A DNA stretch of 64,000 nt, taken from NCBI GenBank assembly GCA_963666515.2, contig OY762897.2:3744001-3808000 (forward strand). Reading direction: 5' to 3'. The position numbers and the translations under genes are program-made. The DNA is from Candidatus Binatia bacterium (GTDB lineage: Bacteria; Desulfobacterota; Binatia; UBA9968; JAJDTQ01). Shown in pieces: positions 50,359 through 57,854 of the stretch. The notes beneath the pieces are model-generated. The model had not been told where the DNA came from. It was given only the letters and a program-made list of their open reading frames with translations, and ran no database searches. Numbering within the stretch: position 1 is the stretch's first letter; each line of letters opens with the position of its first letter.

Positions 50359-50823
50359 TTACGGCATCGCCACCGGGTGCAGCCCGACACCCGTGTGCTC
50401 CAGGATGTCCGCGACGGTATCGAGCTTGTAGGGTTTCTCGTAGTAGATGTCGCCGATGCCGGTGTTCACCAGCACCTTGAGGCAGTGGATGCAGGGGGTG
50501 TGGGTGATGTAGATGGAGGCGTCCTTGATGCTGGCGCCGTTCTTGGCGGCTTGGGCGATGGCGTTGATCTCCGCGTGGATGGTGCGGAAGCAGTTCTGCT
50601 CGACCTCCCCGCCGGGGTTCCTGGACTCGTAGACCAGGCAGCCCACTTCCGTGCAATGGGGCATGCCCGCGGGCGAGCCGTTGTAGCCCGTGGCCAGGAT
50701 GCTCCGGTCCCGGACGATCACCGCGCCCACCTTGGCGCGGGTGCAGGTGGACCGTTCCGCCACCTGCCGGGTGATGGTCATGAAGTACTGGTCCCAGCTC
50801 AGCCGTTCGTCTTGAGTGCTCAC
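50359..50823 (-). CDS. dCMP deaminase / ComEB family protein
   Basis: SWDQYFM, RSTC, TGYNG, HAEINA, PCIHC. Confidence 0.92.
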
Positions 50824-50905
50824 CGCGGTGACCTTTCGTTCAGCCCCGTCAGTATTCGAGGGGGCACTATACCATGCAGCCTCTTCGTATCGCGGCGCCC
50901 TGCGT

Positions 50906-51068
50906 CGTCATTCCGGCGAAAGCCGGAATCCAGGACGGGCGGGGCGGGGAATCACTCTCGTCTGCCCCTCCCCACCCCTGGATTCCGGCTTTCGCCGGAA
51001 TGACGATTTCGGAGGTCATCGCCTATCTCGGACGACGTTTTGGCACCGCCTGGAAAGCGGGAATCCAG
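50906..51068. repeat. Inverted REP pair plus a degenerate third copy
   Basis: Copies at 50906-50933 and 50978-51005; partial gaaagcgggaatccag at 51053-51068. Confidence 0.9.
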
Positions 51069-51860
51069 GGGAGGAGGGGGCGCAAGCAGCACCCGCGTCC
51101 CCGTTCCCGCGCCGAGGCCCGCCTGGGCGCTGCCGTTGCAGCGGGATATCTCCAGCAGTCCCCAGCTATTGACCAAGGCTAGGTAGTTGCCGGCGCCGGC
51201 CGAGGCGTAGTTGTCCGACAGGCCCCGGATGACGCTGTCGCCGACCCGCACCGAAACGCTCTCCGTGTCGAGCCGGCCCAGGTGCTCGCGGCGGATGTTG
51301 GTGGTCAGGTTGCCGAAGCCGTCGACATAGATCACCTGGCCGGCGATGCCGCCCCCGTCTCGTATCTCCGGGTCGGGAACATGCAGGCTCTCGAAGCTTT
51401 CCACGGTCTCGCCCAGCTTCTCCAGCCGAACACCCGCCGACAGGTGGGCGGCCACGGGTGCGAAGACGTCTCGGCCGTGGAACGTCGTGCTGGTGGGCTG
51501 GAGGTGATACTCGGGTTTGGAAAGGTGGATGATGCGGCGCAGGCGTTGCCGCCCGGCCGCGAGGCTCAGGAGCCCGTTGTCCGGGCCCACGTAGCAGGCC
51601 CGGTCGGTTTCGAGCAGGATGGGCCGCCGGTCGCCGCCGACGCCGGGATCCACCACCGCCACGTGGACCACGCCCTCCGGAAAGAAGTCCACGGCGGACG
51701 CCAGCGCCAGCGCGCCTCCGGTGACGTCCTGAGGGGCGACGCCGTGGGTCAGGTCGATGAGGGTGGCGCCAGGGTCGATGGCGGCCACCACCCCCTTCAT
51801 GATGCCGACGAAGGGGTCGCGGTAGCCGAAGTCCGTGGTCAGGGTGATGATTCTTGACAC
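50952..51860 (-). CDS. SAM hydroxide adenosyltransferase (DUF62 family) with REP-derived C-terminal tail
   Basis: ITLTTDFG, VVDPGVGGDRR, GPDNG, STTFHGRDVFAP, YVDGFGNLTTN. Confidence 0.9.
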   Translation of the reverse strand: MSRIITLTTDFGYRDPFVGIMKGVVAAIDPGATLIDLTHGVAPQDVTGGALALASAVDFFPEGVVHVAVVDPGVGGDRRPILLETDRACYVGPDNGLLSLAAGRQRLRRIIHLSKPEYHLQPTSTTFHGRDVFAPVAAHLSAGVRLEKLGETVESFESLHVPDPEIRDGGGIAGQVIYVDGFGNLTTNIRREHLGRLDTESVSVRVGDSVIRGLSDNYASAGAGNYLALVNSWGLLEISRCNGSAQAGLGAGTGTRVLLAPPPPLDSRFPGGAKTSSEIGDDLRNRHSGESRNPGVGRGRRE

Positions 51861-51977: not shown

Positions 51978-52664
51978 ATGATCGAGCTCTACACCAGCGC
52001 CACCCCCAACGGCCAGAAGATCCACATCATGCTGGAGGAGACCGGCCTCCCTTACCGTCTTCACTGGGTCGATCTCAGGAAGGGCGAGCAGTTCGATCCG
52101 GAGTTCCTCAAGATCAGCCCCAACAACAAGATCCCCGTCATCTTCGACCGGGACGGCCCCGGAGGGGAGCCTATCTCGGTGTTCGAGTCCGGCGCCATCC
52201 TGGTCTACCTAGCCGAAAAGACCGGGAAGTTCCTGCCCACCGAAACCCGTGCCCGCACCCGTGTGCTGGAGTGGCTGATGTTCCAGGTGGGCGGCGTCGG
52301 TCCCATGCTCGGCCAGGCGCACCACTTCCGCGCCTACGCGCGCGAGAAGATCCCCTACGCCATCGAGCGCTACACCAGCGAGGGGGCGCGCATCTACCGG
52401 GTGCTGGACAAGCGGCTGTCCGAGAGCGAGTACCTGGCGGGAGACTACTCCATCGCCGACATGGCGGTGTTCCCGTGGATCCGTCTGCACGAGCGGCAGG
52501 GCCAGGACATGGCCGACCACCCCCATCTGAGCCGGTGGTTCAACACCATTGCCGCGCGGCCCGCAGTGGCCAGGGACATGGAGAAGACCCGGGACGTGGT
52601 GGGTGCCATCACCGACGAGATGTGGGACAATCTCTGGGGCAGGAAGCAGTTCGAGCGGCGCTGA
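51978..52664 (+). CDS. Glutathione S-transferase, YfcG-like
   Basis: ATPNGQK, ISPNNKIP, FESGAIL, GPMLGQAHHF, YSIADMA. Confidence 0.92.
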   Translation: MIELYTSATPNGQKIHIMLEETGLPYRLHWVDLRKGEQFDPEFLKISPNNKIPVIFDRDGPGGEPISVFESGAILVYLAEKTGKFLPTETRARTRVLEWLMFQVGGVGPMLGQAHHFRAYAREKIPYAIERYTSEGARIYRVLDKRLSESEYLAGDYSIADMAVFPWIRLHERQGQDMADHPHLSRWFNTIAARPAVARDMEKTRDVVGAITDEMWDNLWGRKQFERR

Positions 52665-52678
52665 CCGGGGGCCGCGGC

Positions 52679-53116
52679 CTACGAGCTGCTGTCCATGGGG
52701 TAGCCTTTCTCGGTCCAGCCGGGAAGCCCCTCGTACAACACCCTCATGTTGCGGTGGCCCTGCTTGTGGAGAATCTCGTAAGCCAACCTGGACAGGTGGC
52801 GAGGGCACTGTCAATAGAGGACGACGAGACCTTCTTTCGGCACGAGGTCCTTGCCCCGGAAAAAGGCGCCCAAGGGTATGGAGAGGGCGCCCTTGATGTG
52901 CCCCGCGTCATAGCTGCGGCGCTGCCGGACGTCCACCAGGGTGATCGGCTTGCGGTCGAGGATGTGCTGGACCAGCTCTTCCACCCGGATATACCGGACC
53001 GCGATCTTGTCCGAGGTCTCTACTTTGGCGTACTCGGGGTATATCCCCGGGTCGCCCCAGGCAGGCGCCGCCGCCATCAACAGCAGCGCCGTCAGTCCAA
53101 CCGCAAGGCGTCGCAT
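52679..53116 (-). CDS. Exported rhodanese-domain protein, probable selenoprotein (UGA at 52811-52813)
   Basis: Signal peptide; LVDVR, YDAGHIKGALSIP, VVLY-TGA-QCP, then in frame RHLSRLAYEILHKQGHRNMRVLYEGLPGWTEKGYP to TAG at 52679. Confidence 0.85.
52775..52803 (-). promoter_or_regulatory. Putative bacterial SECIS element
   Basis: mRNA UGA-CAGUGCC-CUC-GCCACCU-GUCC-AGGUUGGC-UUAC-GAG; G-initiated loop 17 nt after the UGA, bulged U in the stem. Confidence 0.65.
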
Positions 53117-54110: not shown

Positions 54111-54749
54111 CTACCCCGTTCCCGTCAGCAAGCTTCGGGCGTTCCGGCGCAGCCGTTCCAACGCACGCGGGTTGCGGCTTTCGTAGTAGCCCCGGATGAT
54201 GCCGTCGCGGTCCACCAGCACGAACCGGGTGCTGTGGAAGACTACGGGATCGTGCGTGTGGCCGTCCACCGGGGCGGCGCTCAGGCGGAACCCGTCCTGC
54301 ACGATGCGGCGGATCTCCCCCAACTCACCGGTGAGGAACAGCCAGCGCTCGGGGTCCGCGCCGTACCGTTCGGCGTATCGCGACAACAACGCGGGCGTGT
54401 CCGTGAGCGGATCGACGGAGATGGAGACGGACCGCAGGTCGCCGTAGCCCTTCAGGTCCGTCCGCAGCGCCGCCATGGCGCGGCTCTGGAGCGGGCAGGT
54501 GTCCCGGCACTGGGTGTAGATGAAGTCCGCGATCCAGACCCGGCCGCGCAGGTCGCCGGCGGACACGGGCCTGCCGCTTCGCTCCACCAGCGAGAAGTCC
54601 GGCGCCGGACCGTACCGCGCGAGCTGCTCCAGGACGGGCTGGCGCGGAGCCGCAGGGGGGGTACGGAGTTGTTGGATGACAAGGCTGACGAGGACGATGG
54701 ACAAGACCGTCCCGACGGTCACCTGGAGCATGAAACGCCGCTGTGTCAT
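54111..54749 (-). CDS. SCO1/SenC family copper chaperone
   Basis: N-terminal TM, FIYTQCRDTCP, SISVDP, HSTRFVLVD. Confidence 0.93.
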   Translation of the reverse strand: MTQRRFMLQVTVGTVLSIVLVSLVIQQLRTPPAAPRQPVLEQLARYGPAPDFSLVERSGRPVSAGDLRGRVWIADFIYTQCRDTCPLQSRAMAALRTDLKGYGDLRSVSISVDPLTDTPALLSRYAERYGADPERWLFLTGELGEIRRIVQDGFRLSAAPVDGHTHDPVVFHSTRFVLVDRDGIIRGYYESRNPRALERLRRNARSLLTGTG

Positions 54750-54867: not shown

Positions 54868-55683
54868 CTAGCGGTTCCGCCGCAGCCACCGGCGGCCACC
54901 AACCAGGAAGAAGACCAGCGTGAAGGTGAGGACGATCATGGCGCCGGAGGAGATGTCGATGAAGTAGCTGAGGTACATGCCGGCCGCCGCGCACACGGCG
55001 CCGATGATCGGGGTGATGACCAGCAGGGTCTGGAACCGTTGTGTCAGGTAGCGGCCTATGACCGGAGGGATGACCACGGCGGCGGACACGAGGGTGACGC
55101 CGAGGATGCGGGTGGACGCCACGATGGTGACCGCCAGCACCAGGATGAAGATCAGCTCGGTACGGCCGGTGGAGATGCCGTACACCGGCGCCACCTCCGG
55201 GTCGAAGGTGGAGAACAGGAGCTGGCGGCGGATGACGATCATGACGAGTACGACGGCGGCGGCGGTGGCCGCGATGACCCGGAGATCCACCGGCGTGATG
55301 CCCAGCAGGTTGCCGAAGAGCGCGGCCTCGAAGTCCAGCGTGAACTTCCGGTAGGTGGAGACCACCGCCACGCCCAGGGCGAAGCTCGCGGTCGTCACCA
55401 CGCCGATGGCGGCGTCGGCGCCCACCAGCCGGCGGTGGCTGATGAGGTGGATCAGCACCGCGCTCACCAGCGCCCACACGCCGGCGCCGATGAAGAAGTG
55501 GACGCCGACGATGGTGCTCAGCACCGCCCCGCCGAAGAGGGCGTGGGCCAGCCCGTGGCCGATATAGCTCATGCGCCGGAGCACCACGTAGACGCCGACG
55601 TAGCCGCACACCGCGCCGACGATGACCGAGGCGATCATGCCGTTGCGGAAGAACTCGTAGGCGAAGGGTTCAAGCGGACCCAT
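54868..55683 (-). CDS. Metal (Zn/Mn) ABC transporter permease
   Basis: GVYVVLRRMSYIGHGLAHA, LFGNLL, TFDPE. Confidence 0.92.
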   Translation of the reverse strand: MGPLEPFAYEFFRNGMIASVIVGAVCGYVGVYVVLRRMSYIGHGLAHALFGGAVLSTIVGVHFFIGAGVWALVSAVLIHLISHRRLVGADAAIGVVTTASFALGVAVVSTYRKFTLDFEAALFGNLLGITPVDLRVIAATAAAVVLVMIVIRRQLLFSTFDPEVAPVYGISTGRTELIFILVLAVTIVASTRILGVTLVSAAVVIPPVIGRYLTQRFQTLLVITPIIGAVCAAAGMYLSYFIDISSGAMIVLTFTLVFFLVGGRRWLRRNR

Positions 55684-55690
55684 GGAGGCG

Positions 55691-56563
55691 TCATCCGCCG
55701 TTGGGCGAGTGCGGCCGTTCGCCCACCATGATCATGTCGCCGTGCTGGAAGACCACCATCTCCCCCTTGTAGGTCTCTCCCAGCACTTCGGTGGTGAACA
55801 CCTGCTGGGGGTCGCCTTCGGCGATCACGCGCCGGTTCAGGCACACCACCCACGGCAGGTGCGCGGCCACCCAGTTGAGGTCGTGGCTGGTGATGAGGAT
55901 GGCGACGCCCGAGTGGTTGATCTCGTGAAGGAAATGGACCACCTCGTCGCGGGAGCGGATGTCGAGCCCGGAGGTGGGCTCGTCGAGCAGGATCAGCTCC
56001 GGCTCTCCCAGCAGCGCCCGGGCGATGAACGCGGCCTGCTGCTGTCCTCCGGACAGCTCCCGGATCTGGCGGTCCCGCAGCTCATGCAGGTTGAGCCGCT
56101 CCATGATCTCGTGGGCGCGGTCGCGGTCCTCCGGAGCGGTGCGCCGGAACCACCGGTGGCGCCGGGACAGGCCCAGCAGCACCACCTCCTCCACGGTGAT
56201 GGGAAAGCTCAGGTCGATCTGCTCAAGCTGCGGCACGTAGCCCACGGACCCGAGAGACCCGCCGCCAGCCGGCGCACCGTGGACGGTCACCCGCCCTTCC
56301 CTGGGCCGGATGTGCCCCAGGATGGTGCGCAGCAGCGTGGTCTTCCCCCCGCCGTTGGGTCCCACCACCGCCAAGAACTGCGCCGGCCAGAGCTTCAGGT
56401 TGACCCCGGCGATGCCCAGGGTCTGCCGGTAGCCGCTGGACACGTCCGTCAGCTCCACGATGGGCCGCCCCTGCTCGCTCCACTCCCGCCCGCCCGCATG
56501 CGGGTGCCCGTGCAGCCTGCCGTGGACGTGGTGGACCCGGTCGGTGTGCTTCTCGGAGGTCAC
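55691..56563 (-). CDS. Metal (Zn/Mn) ABC transporter ATP-binding protein
   Basis: GPNGGGKT, GYVPQ, LSGGQ, LLDEPT, SHDL; His-rich N-terminus. Confidence 0.92.
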   Translation of the reverse strand: MTSEKHTDRVHHVHGRLHGHPHAGGREWSEQGRPIVELTDVSSGYRQTLGIAGVNLKLWPAQFLAVVGPNGGGKTTLLRTILGHIRPREGRVTVHGAPAGGGSLGSVGYVPQLEQIDLSFPITVEEVVLLGLSRRHRWFRRTAPEDRDRAHEIMERLNLHELRDRQIRELSGGQQQAAFIARALLGEPELILLDEPTSGLDIRSRDEVVHFLHEINHSGVAILITSHDLNWVAAHLPWVVCLNRRVIAEGDPQQVFTTEVLGETYKGEMVVFQHGDMIMVGERPHSPNGG

Positions 56564-56823: not shown

Positions 56824-57288
56824 ATGAATACGACAACCCATCGTCAACTCCCGCCCACGCCACGGGATGCCGCGATCGCCCGTAGTTCCCGCCAGATTCT
56901 TTCCCACTACGCCGGGATTCAGCGACCCTTGAGGCTCCGCGTGAGAGACCGCGGGCAGGAGGAGCCAATCGAGCTTCCAGCGGGTGCAGTCAGGTTGCTC
57001 ATGCACGTGCTGGAGGCCATGGCCGCGGGCCGGGGCGTAACGCTTGTTCCCGAGAGTGCAGAACTGACTACGGTCCAGGCAGCCGAGGTGTTGAACGTTT
57101 CCCGCCCTTTCCTGATCAAGCTTCTGGACGAGAATGCCATTCCGCACCGGAAGGTCGGCAAGCACCGCCGGGTTCGCATGGAGGACGTCATGGCGTACAA
57201 GGAGGCGATTGACCGGGAACGCGAGCAGGTTCTCGACCAGTTGACGCGGGAGGCCCAAGAACAGGGCTTGGGGTACCGTGTTCCGTGA
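56824..57288 (+). CDS. Excisionase-like HTH protein, putative antitoxin
   Basis: ELTTVQAAEVLNVSRPFLIKLLD...KVGKHRRV; GTGA coupling to the PIN gene. Confidence 0.88.
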   Translation: MNTTTHRQLPPTPRDAAIARSSRQILSHYAGIQRPLRLRVRDRGQEEPIELPAGAVRLLMHVLEAMAAGRGVTLVPESAELTTVQAAEVLNVSRPFLIKLLDENAIPHRKVGKHRRVRMEDVMAYKEAIDREREQVLDQLTREAQEQGLGYRVP

Positions 57289-57854
57289 CCCGTTACACGG
57301 CTCTTCTCGACGCCAACGTTCTCTACTCCGCGCCGATACGCGATATTTTTTTGCAGTTGGCCGTGAGCGATGTCTTCCGGGTGAGATGGACGGCGGATAT
57401 CCATCGCGAGTGGATTGATGCGCTCCTCCGCAACGAGCCTCATCGGAGTCGTACCGTCCTCGAACGCACGCGATCTCTCGTGGACCGCGCCACCCGCGAT
57501 TGCCTGATTACCGGATATGAGGCCCTGATCCCGACTCTCGACCTTCCCGACCCCGACGATCGCCACATTCTTGCGGCAGCGATCGCTGGTCGTTGCGACG
57601 CGATTGTCACCGCGAACCTTCAGGACTTCCCGAACGTCGTGGTCAATCCATATGGGATCGAAGTTCAACACCCGGATGAATTCCTGTTCAATCACCTCGA
57701 ACTGGCACCGGGGATTTTCTGCGAGGCCGTCCGCAAGGTACGCGCACGGCTGAAGGCGCCACCCTTAACCGTTGAAGAGTATCTCGCCAATTTGTCCAAG
57801 CAGGGGCTGGTCGCGACCGCCACGGAGCTGGAACGGTTTGCGGTGTCGATCTGA
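57285..57854 (+). CDS. PIN-domain protein, putative VapC-like toxin
   Basis: ALLDANVL, LPDPDDRHILAAA, IVTANLQDFP, HPDEFL. Confidence 0.9.
   Translation: MTRYTALLDANVLYSAPIRDIFLQLAVSDVFRVRWTADIHREWIDALLRNEPHRSRTVLERTRSLVDRATRDCLITGYEALIPTLDLPDPDDRHILAAAIAGRCDAIVTANLQDFPNVVVNPYGIEVQHPDEFLFNHLELAPGIFCEAVRKVRARLKAPPLTVEEYLANLSKQGLVATATELERFAVSI

Follow-up and report, generated by a model that had tools for sequence, protein, structure and literature searches.

Rhodanese-like proteins are an established group of selenoproteins. The text of a 2026 catalogue distinguishes five forms by the motif in which selenocysteine (Sec, U) occurs, namely UxxS in form 1, UxxG in forms 2 and 4, CxU in form 3 (NF041203) and UxxxxU in form 5, known as TsoB (NF045694) (PMC13188914); a 2022 review lists three forms in its text (PMC9312934), and the texts of studies on the Sargasso Sea, the Global Ocean Sampling (GOS) data and Olavius report rhodanese-related sulfurtransferase selenoproteins, including a UxU form (PMC1088965, PMC2398784, PMC1976440). 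Here we analyze a 64,000-nucleotide stretch of a Candidatus Binatia genome (contig OY762897.2; hereafter the window), which contains on its minus strand a rhodanese gene with an in-frame TGA at the position of the catalytic cysteine. We rate its predicted product as a new form of the rhodanese-like selenoproteins, with a distinctive and conserved redox neighbourhood; it would be the sixth, characterized by a U-x-C motif with Sec at the catalytic position. An initial annotation of the window had proposed a hidden, exported rhodanese selenoprotein at this site and had pointed to the existence of Sec-containing rhodanese-related proteins. The five catalogued forms bear this out (PMC13188914), while shifting the emphasis, since the gene represents a new form and not a new kind of selenoprotein.

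The annotated open reading frame (ORF), at 53116..52811 on the minus strand, comprises 101 codons from the ATG at 53116-53114 to the TGA at 52813-52811. Past this TGA the same frame stays open for 43 further codons and ends with a TAG at 52681-52679. Reading the TGA as Sec yields a 145-aa product with U as residue 102, which begins with MRRLAVGLTALLLMAAAPAWG/DPG, continues through ...GLVVLY-U-Q-C-P-R-H-LSRLAYEIL... and finishes with EGLPGWTEKGYPMDSSS. A GAGGG at 53127-53123 precedes the start codon, which overlaps the TGA stop of the upstream VKOR gene by one base. The Pfam rhodanese profile PF00581 matches residues 46-136 with 55.4 bits (cut-off 22.2), which places the TGA inside the domain, and in HMMER alignments residue 102 falls on the Cys of the YC(R/G)xG active-site loops of the solved structures 3tp9 and 6mxv. 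An AlphaFold2 model based on 32 family members reaches a mean predicted local distance difference test (pLDDT) value of 85.5, with block means of 90-98 over residues 41-140, and all the matches listed by Foldseek against the PDB are of rhodanese type with probability 1.00, headed by 6mxv, 3tp9, 3nhv and YgaP. The protein hence combines a profile score above the cut-off with the alpha/beta fold of the rhodanese domain and a nucleophile position opening the loop that follows the central beta-strand. Both the location of the TGA at the catalytic position and the completion of the fold by the 43 codons beyond it, as put forward in the initial annotation, are therefore confirmed by the read-through translation, by the alignment to solved structures, by the extent of the Pfam domain and by the conservation of the frame in orthologues. 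As far as sequence analysis can establish them, Sec recoding, the fold and the assignment of Sec102 to the nucleophile position of an unusual rhodanese loop can be taken as secure.

The active-site loop reads Y-U-Q-C-P-R-H in the window protein and Y-U-x-C-P-(R/H)-H across the family. Position 104 holds Cys in 32 of 33 aligned orthologues and in 29 of 29 homologues that carry Cys in place of Sec, and the sole orthologue lacking Sec also lacks the second Cys, its loop being Y-G-N-R-P. The loss of both residues in the only Sec-less orthologue argues that residues 102 and 104 act as a pair. All 40 relatives found in a large protein collection are 87-115 aa long, and none covers more than 70% of the query; standard pipelines therefore truncate the protein, as had been anticipated. 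Public collections thus hold only fragments of about 100 aa, which end one residue short of the active site, and because they do, functional or metabolic inference from those annotations will be wrong.

The NCBIfam model closest to this family is NF041203 ('rhodanese_LYCAU'), which is the best match for 32 of 32 aligned members (alignment A2), with no E-value better than 3e-19. In both, a small protein with a single rhodanese domain carries a Cys/Sec pair one residue apart after the end of an L-Y strand, but in NF041203 Sec comes third (L-Y-C-A-U), whereas in the window family it comes first, at the catalytic position (L-Y-U-x-C). Assignment to NF041203 was rejected: the window protein reaches 47.6 bits where the cut-off is 115, all 32 members fall below that cut-off, and the motif is U-x-C, not C-x-U. 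TsoB (NF045694) was likewise rejected (31.4 bits against a cut-off of 805). It shares with the window protein the presence of Sec within a rhodanese homology domain, but it is a DsbD-like fusion with two Sec residues in a UxxxxU arrangement, whereas the window protein is a single domain of 145 aa encoded with one UGA. Forms 1, 2 and 4 also carry Sec within the rhodanese homology domain, but in the other loop motifs given in the text of the catalogue, UxxS for the first and UxxG for the other two (PMC13188914). The UxU 'rhodanese-related sulfurtransferase' of the Olavius algarvensis delta-symbionts, which can be compared by its description only, indicates that the first of two spaced positions can be Sec; it has a second Sec where the window family has Cys, and the text describing it mentions no VKOR or SCO1 context (PMC1976440). 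More generally, neither a U-x-C rhodanese nor a VKOR context appears in the texts of the catalogue, the review and the Sargasso, GOS and Olavius studies, whose figures or supplements might hold one, and a search for literature linking rhodanese selenoproteins with VKOR, Binatota or cytochrome c returned nothing relevant.

Conservation of the TGA was assessed at several taxonomic depths. Among 41 related genomes, 22 of 22 best matches hold exactly one TGA. Across the whole order, matches at E<=1e-15 were obtained in 82 of 123 genomes; the 82 matches at E<=1.8e-21 comprise 81 with exactly one TGA and one with none, or 78 of 79 with TGA when three genomes flagged as unpublished (G458, G461 and G478) are excluded. 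With a TGA-containing copy in 81 of 123 genomes, the form is widespread in this uncultured lineage. In a phylum-wide sample, matches at E<=1e-15 occur in 2 of 401 genomes, so that, apart from a few neighbours, the Sec form is limited to this order. When 33 orthologues (39-85% identity) are aligned, the TGA shares one column in all 32 TGA-bearing rows, and several of the residues that follow it (H107, L108, E129, G130, W134 and P140) are invariant or nearly so. A TGA private to one strain, or one introduced by an assembly error, is excluded by its presence in 81 of the 82 best matches in the order together with the conserved downstream frame. These data also bear on the possibility that the TGA is a true stop, or that the gene is decaying, so that a 101-aa fragment would be made and the frame beyond it would be open by chance in G+C-rich DNA. 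Gene callers do end the protein at the TGA, and this G+C-rich DNA abounds in long spurious ORFs; against this, the 43 downstream codons complete the Pfam domain and are conserved to 36-40% identity across 81 matches, the invariant residues E129, G130 and W134 lie beyond the TGA, and a 101-aa product would end directly before the residue at the catalytic position. We give this explanation next to no credence. The single orthologue without TGA (L040/L080 in G511:C39, at L040:3013-3483 on the minus strand) has a Gly codon instead, together with a degraded hairpin downstream and the VKOR-thioredoxin gene still in place upstream, and it has the appearance of a derivative that lost catalysis while its frame stayed intact.

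A scan of named genome records provided 80 loci for comparison, of which 51 are of Sec type, labelled Candidatus Binatia or older 'Deltaproteobacteria' or 'Thermodesulfobacteriota' metagenome-assembled genomes (MAGs), and 29 are of Cys type. The residue at the UGA column is encoded by TGA in 50 loci and is Gly in one and Cys in 29. All 29 Cys forms share the loop Y-C-A-C-P-H-H-L-S and come from other phyla (Methylomirabilota/Rokubacteria, Sericytochromatia, WOR-3, Eisenbacteria and Kofleriaceae/Myxococcota), and a representative library added five Cys-type proteins with the same C-x-C-P loop. The comparison of homologues for Cys or TGA at this column, suggested in the initial annotation as a check, thus yielded both of the expected states. 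The Cys-type rhodaneses (L104-L132) resemble the Sec family in their loop, at 31-48% identity, and stand as its sister or outgroup lineages, but they have Cys for Sec, no SECIS-like hairpin (SECIS, selenocysteine insertion sequence) and no detected VKOR or SCO1 neighbour, and 22 of the 29 are fused to cytochromes, the rhodanese domain being preceded in frame by one or two CxxCH haem motifs. Pfam searches with two of them returned Cytochrome_CBB3, Cytochrom_C and Rhodanese. In L107, L110-L112, L114-L118 and L120-L132, which derive from Kofleriaceae/Myxococcota and one Eisenbacteria MAG, the rhodanese is the C-terminal domain of proteins of ~370-540 aa with two CxxCH motifs each (one where the contig is cut), that is, of dihaem cytochrome c-rhodanese fusions. 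In the Methylomirabilota/Rokubacteria forms L104 and L105 the rhodanese gene is followed by genes for a FUR-family regulator and a zinc-type alcohol dehydrogenase.

In a maximum-likelihood tree the Sec and Gly forms constitute one group (support 86/77), with the Methylomirabilota/Rokubacteria Cys forms as its sister (95/93) and the Gly form nested among the Sec forms (99/88). The Sec, Cys and Gly labels require two changes on this tree, which is the minimum, so that one Cys/Sec switch and one later loss explain the distribution. The family thereby offers a clean natural series of Sec, Cys and loss for studying why selenium is used.

The initial annotation had named the selA, selB, selC and selD genes as a point to be checked, and the set is complete. 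The selA, selB and selD genes are clustered in the same genome, outside the window (G000:C1:4043412-4047477), and ARAGORN detected a tRNA-Sec with anticodon tca. The selD product is itself a selenoprotein, with one in-frame TGA (KAAG-U-AAKL) followed at ~27-47 nt by a strong 9-bp hairpin with a GUC loop.

The G-initiated loop that had been noted 17 nt after the UGA of the rhodanese gene is present, as GUCC at 52793-52790, in a hairpin extending from G52800 to C52782 (GCCACCU-GUCC-AGG-U-UGGC, -8.7 kcal/mol). The initial description of this element as SECIS-like is upheld by comparison across the loci: at 10-17 nt beyond the UGA, all 50 Sec forms have a small hairpin whose loop begins with GU, and it is absent from the Cys and Gly forms. 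The loop G lies at 21 or 26 nt counted from the U of the UGA, and the spacing rule of bSECISearch is 16-37 nt. In 44 of the 50 Sec forms the hairpin occupies nt 20-33 from the U of the UGA, with the sequence U-GGCC-A-GU(U/C)-U-GGC(C/U) or a variant and 4-5 bp. The subclade of the window (5 of 50, plus one intermediate) carries three linked changes, G22U, U27G and C33U, which abolish the majority hairpin and create a shifted one that again has a GU loop. Folding energies of the 24-nt segment range from -5.0 to -8.7 kcal/mol in the 50 Sec forms (mean -7.3), against a mean of -2.2 kcal/mol in the 29 Cys forms (one at or below -7.4) and -4.4 kcal/mol in the Gly form.

Several observations at the level of codons indicate that the hairpin follows the TGA and not the peptide. 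In the Cys form L105 the peptide CACPHHLASLAYG is identical, but the synonymous codons differ (CTC GCG AGC CTC GCC) and no such hairpin forms, while in the Gly form the hairpin is broken by one synonymous and one non-synonymous change. The loop Ser codon of the Sec forms is AGT in 44 of 50 and is replaced by AGG (Arg) in the remaining 6, and is never AGC or TCN, in DNA of ~65% G+C. In L099 the closing pair G21-C33 has been swapped to C21-G33 through two synonymous changes, which are compensatory. Codons +5 to +10 show a diversity of 0.33 bits for His, 0.82 and 0.70 for Leu and 0.75 for Ala, all below each of the conserved columns for the same amino acids elsewhere in the gene (0.92 for His, 1.39-2.28 for Leu and 1.40 for Ala). 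A minimal hairpin of 4-5 bp with a GU loop that tracks the UGA would provide a compact example of a bacterial SECIS element embedded in conserved coding sequence.

The gene therefore displays the features by which selenoprotein genes are recognized, namely a conserved in-frame UGA (50 of 51 Binatia-type loci), selABCD, Cys homologues and a stem-loop with a GU loop 3' of the UGA, and we consider it almost certain to be a real and conserved selenoprotein gene. The UGA could alternatively be read through as a residue other than Sec, by near-cognate insertion of Trp or Cys or through a lineage-wide reassignment of TGA. TGA terminates the upstream VKOR gene and 11 of 34 homologous genes examined, and so is not reassigned in these genomes; the genome has a complete Sec system, the hairpin tracks TGA rather than the peptide, and relatives carry Cys there, the residue usually found in place of Sec. 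Non-Sec read-through appears very improbable on this evidence.

The N-terminus of the window protein starts with basic residues, followed by a hydrophobic core of 14 residues and, ahead of D-P, by A-W-G. On inspection, orthologues show the same organization, with a basic n-region leading into a hydrophobic stretch and with small residues at -3 and -1 before D/N/E-P, and distant orthologues have cleavage-site-like triplets (S-L-A, S-A-A, A-R-A or A-T-A) in the same place. In the AlphaFold2 model the N-terminus is a lone helix (residues 3-15) followed by a low-confidence linker. Twin-arginine translocation (Tat) was considered and rejected: Tat signals carry a conserved S/T-R-R-x-F-L-K motif, but the twin arginine that the window protein has occurs after Met in only 8 of 33 orthologues, the others having LR, PR or K, and since this feature is not conserved, export through Tat is unlikely and the Sec secretion pathway is the likelier route. 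Cytochromes of the c type mature outside the cytoplasm. A location in the cell envelope is accordingly suggested by two lines of evidence, because the VKOR-thioredoxin and SCO1 partners face the periplasm and because 22 of 29 Cys homologues carry haem-binding motifs. We judge that the rhodanese selenoprotein is probably exported. The proposal of the initial annotation that the Sec residue acts outside the cytoplasm is thus supported by the conserved n-h-c regions, the A-x-A-type site, the periplasm-facing partners and the cytochrome fusions, although it is not proven.

The rhodanese gene is the last of a conserved trio and, on its arrangement, is translationally coupled to the preceding gene, which encodes a VKOR domain fused to a thioredoxin-like domain (VKOR-Trx) with four invariant Cys pairs (C56/C62, C131-x-x-C134, C219-x-x-C222 and C241/C254). 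We take bacterial VKOR-thioredoxin fusions such as Synechococcus VKOR to be the appropriate comparison for this protein. The four Cys pairs that such fusions should have are conserved in the upstream gene, and its periplasmic thioredoxin-like domain could exchange electrons with the U-x-C motif, the partnership with the rhodanese being read here from gene order only. Neighbours were counted in the 80 loci by tblastn with the VKOR-Trx and SCO1 proteins of the window as queries. VKOR-Trx lies directly upstream of the rhodanese in 48 of the 51 Sec-type loci (one as the thioredoxin-like part only, and several cut by contig ends) and SCO1 lies upstream in 43 of 51, while by the same search neither was found in any of the 29 Cys-type loci. 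In one sublineage (L021/L067), only the thioredoxin-like part of the VKOR fusion was detected between SCO1 and the rhodanese (query residues 230-289), and the partner may be split or shortened there. Four distant Sec-type loci (L068, L073, L076 and L081) have the order SCO1, DUF4382, SCO1, VKOR-Trx, rhodanese, followed downstream by QueC in L073, L076 and L081 (in L081 then by DUF58) and by an amidohydrolase in L068. A weak CtaG/Cox11-like match occurs upstream in L070.

We put forward with good confidence, as the best explanation of these results taken together, that the SelA/SelB/SelD/tRNA-Sec system recodes the UGA at 52813-52811 to Sec, that the short hairpin just 3' of the UGA guides recoding by presenting its GU-initiated loop, and that the 145-aa single-domain rhodanese so produced probably leaves the cytoplasm via the Sec secretion pathway, with cleavage after residue 21. 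A specific mechanism can be outlined more tentatively. In the cell envelope, the selenolate of Sec102 would attack a sulfur or disulfide substrate, Cys104 would resolve the adduct to form a Se-S bond, and the thioredoxin-like domain of the co-translated VKOR would recycle this bond, linking the cycle to the quinone pool, with SCO1/SenC as a further envelope thiol or copper partner; in Myxococcota, the fused dihaem cytochrome c would serve as the equivalent electron partner. In this exact version the Se-S relay is plausible, but we would not favour it over the sum of its alternatives. Somewhat more speculative still is the generalization that the Y-[U/C]-x-C-P-H-H rhodanese domain is not a sulfur carrier but a hitherto uncatalogued redox module of the extracytoplasmic space, which in Binatia would take the form of a selenoenzyme wired to the quinone pool by a dedicated VKOR-Trx, with SCO1, and in Myxococcota that of a Cys version wired to haem c. 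If true, the trio would constitute a selenium-based electron relay of the envelope, which could act by oxidation or reduction on a small substrate of sulfur, selenium or metal, or serve in the assembly of copper centres. The coupling to VKOR-Trx and SCO1 and the cytochrome c fusions of the Cys relatives, in any case, provide a testable hypothesis for the role of this loop in the envelope.

Two other functions are compatible with a real selenoprotein. The protein may act in the envelope as a classical carrier of sulfane sulfur or as a sulfurtransferase, like periplasmic PspE or Sud, forming a Se-S-S(H) adduct on Sec102 and lacking a dedicated VKOR-Trx relay, the gene order then reflecting a shared compartment. 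A rhodanese fold whose catalytic position holds Sec, weak NCBIfam matches to the PspE and GlpE thiosulfate sulfurtransferases and the 3 of 51 Sec-type loci without a VKOR neighbour would all fit such a carrier; yet the second Cys, superfluous for a simple carrier, is invariant in Sec and Cys forms and was lost along with Sec in the one exception, the dihaem cytochrome c fusions of the Cys forms point to electron transfer, and the rhodanese start codon shares one base with the VKOR stop. This function is, in our view, rather unlikely, while deserving consideration. Alternatively, the U-x-C-P-H-H loop might bind a metal such as Cu(I), or reduce a metal or metalloid, in copper-centre assembly with SCO1. 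The text of the catalogue gives a U-x-C motif for a selenoprotein of the Cu/Zn efflux transporter kind (PMC13188914). Further signs in the same direction are the conservation of SCO1/SenC upstream, its duplication together with DUF4382 in distant loci, the one weak Cox11-like match, the Zn/Mn-type importer adjoining the trio in the window and the FUR-family regulators that follow two Cys forms. Set against them, tblastn detected SCO1 in 43 of 51 loci and not in all, and rhodanese domains are not known to act as copper chaperones; we deem a metal-related role improbable.

Several results weigh against the explanation in terms of a hairpin-guided, exported selenoprotein coupled to VKOR-Trx and SCO1, and temper the confidence placed in its parts. 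The 76-nt fold around the UGA is unexceptional in comparison with shuffled sequences (z = -0.47, with 60 of 200 shuffles equal or better); we consequently dropped folding energy as an argument and derive the significance of the hairpin from the comparative data. No pair of either candidate hairpin is changed on both sides in the alignment of 33 orthologues. The hairpin is small, and its structural support consists of its presence or absence, synonymous-site conservation and the one compensatory case in L099. Co-occurrence of the gene with SelB does not discriminate, given that SelB was matched in 111 of the 123 genomes of the order, and eight genomes with the TGA-containing gene gave no SelB match, all of them drafts of 60-96% completeness. 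The case for export draws on inspection of the N-terminal sequences. The link to VKOR-Trx and SCO1, finally, is one of gene order alone, and the neighbourhood may reflect a shared compartment instead of a dedicated relay; VKOR-Trx enzymes are usually general disulfide-forming catalysts.

Table 1. Coordinates of the rhodanese selenoprotein gene, its elements and its conserved upstream neighbours in the window.
Feature	Positions	Strand	Basis or remarks
Complete read-through coding sequence of the predicted rhodanese selenoprotein	52679..53116	minus	145 aa + TAG stop
Signal-peptide-like N-terminus, MRRLAVGLTALLLMAAAPAWG then DPG	53054..53116	minus	Sequence inspection
Rhodanese homology domain, residues 46-136	52709..52981	minus	Pfam PF00581, E 9e-15
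UGA codon 102, predicted to be read as Sec	52811..52813	minus	Catalytic-Cys position; orthologue and structure alignments, Cys homologues
Cys104 codon TGC, candidate resolving Cys of the U-x-C pair	52805..52807	minus	Alignments
SECIS-like hairpin, 7 bp + one bulged U, loop GUCC at 52793-52790	52782..52800	minus	Folding and comparison
VKOR fused to thioredoxin-like domain, 298 aa	53116..54012	minus	Pfam VKOR, E 8e-25
SCO1/SenC-family protein, first gene of the conserved trio	54111..54749	minus	Pfam SCO1-SenC, E 1e-26

Beyond the trio (Table 1), the window contains a Zn/Mn-type ATP-binding cassette (ABC) importer, with an ABC-3 permease and an ATPase, that adjoins the trio, and a ZnuA gene further on. 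An HTH_17/PIN-domain gene pair, which resembles a toxin-antitoxin system, lies at 56824-57854 on the plus strand, opposite to and between the metal ABC-transporter genes (55691-56563 and 54868-55683) and the amidohydrolase and ZnuA genes. On the other side, a glutathione S-transferase gene (51978-52664, plus strand) converges on the rhodanese gene, their stops lying 14 nt apart (52664 and 52679), and this neighbour is kept only within the genus of the window. At ~50816-51182, near the end of a gene resembling SAM hydroxide adenosyltransferase, ORF translations on both strands repeat IPAKAGIQ and IPAFAGMT, which suggests at least two copies of a short palindromic repeat element.

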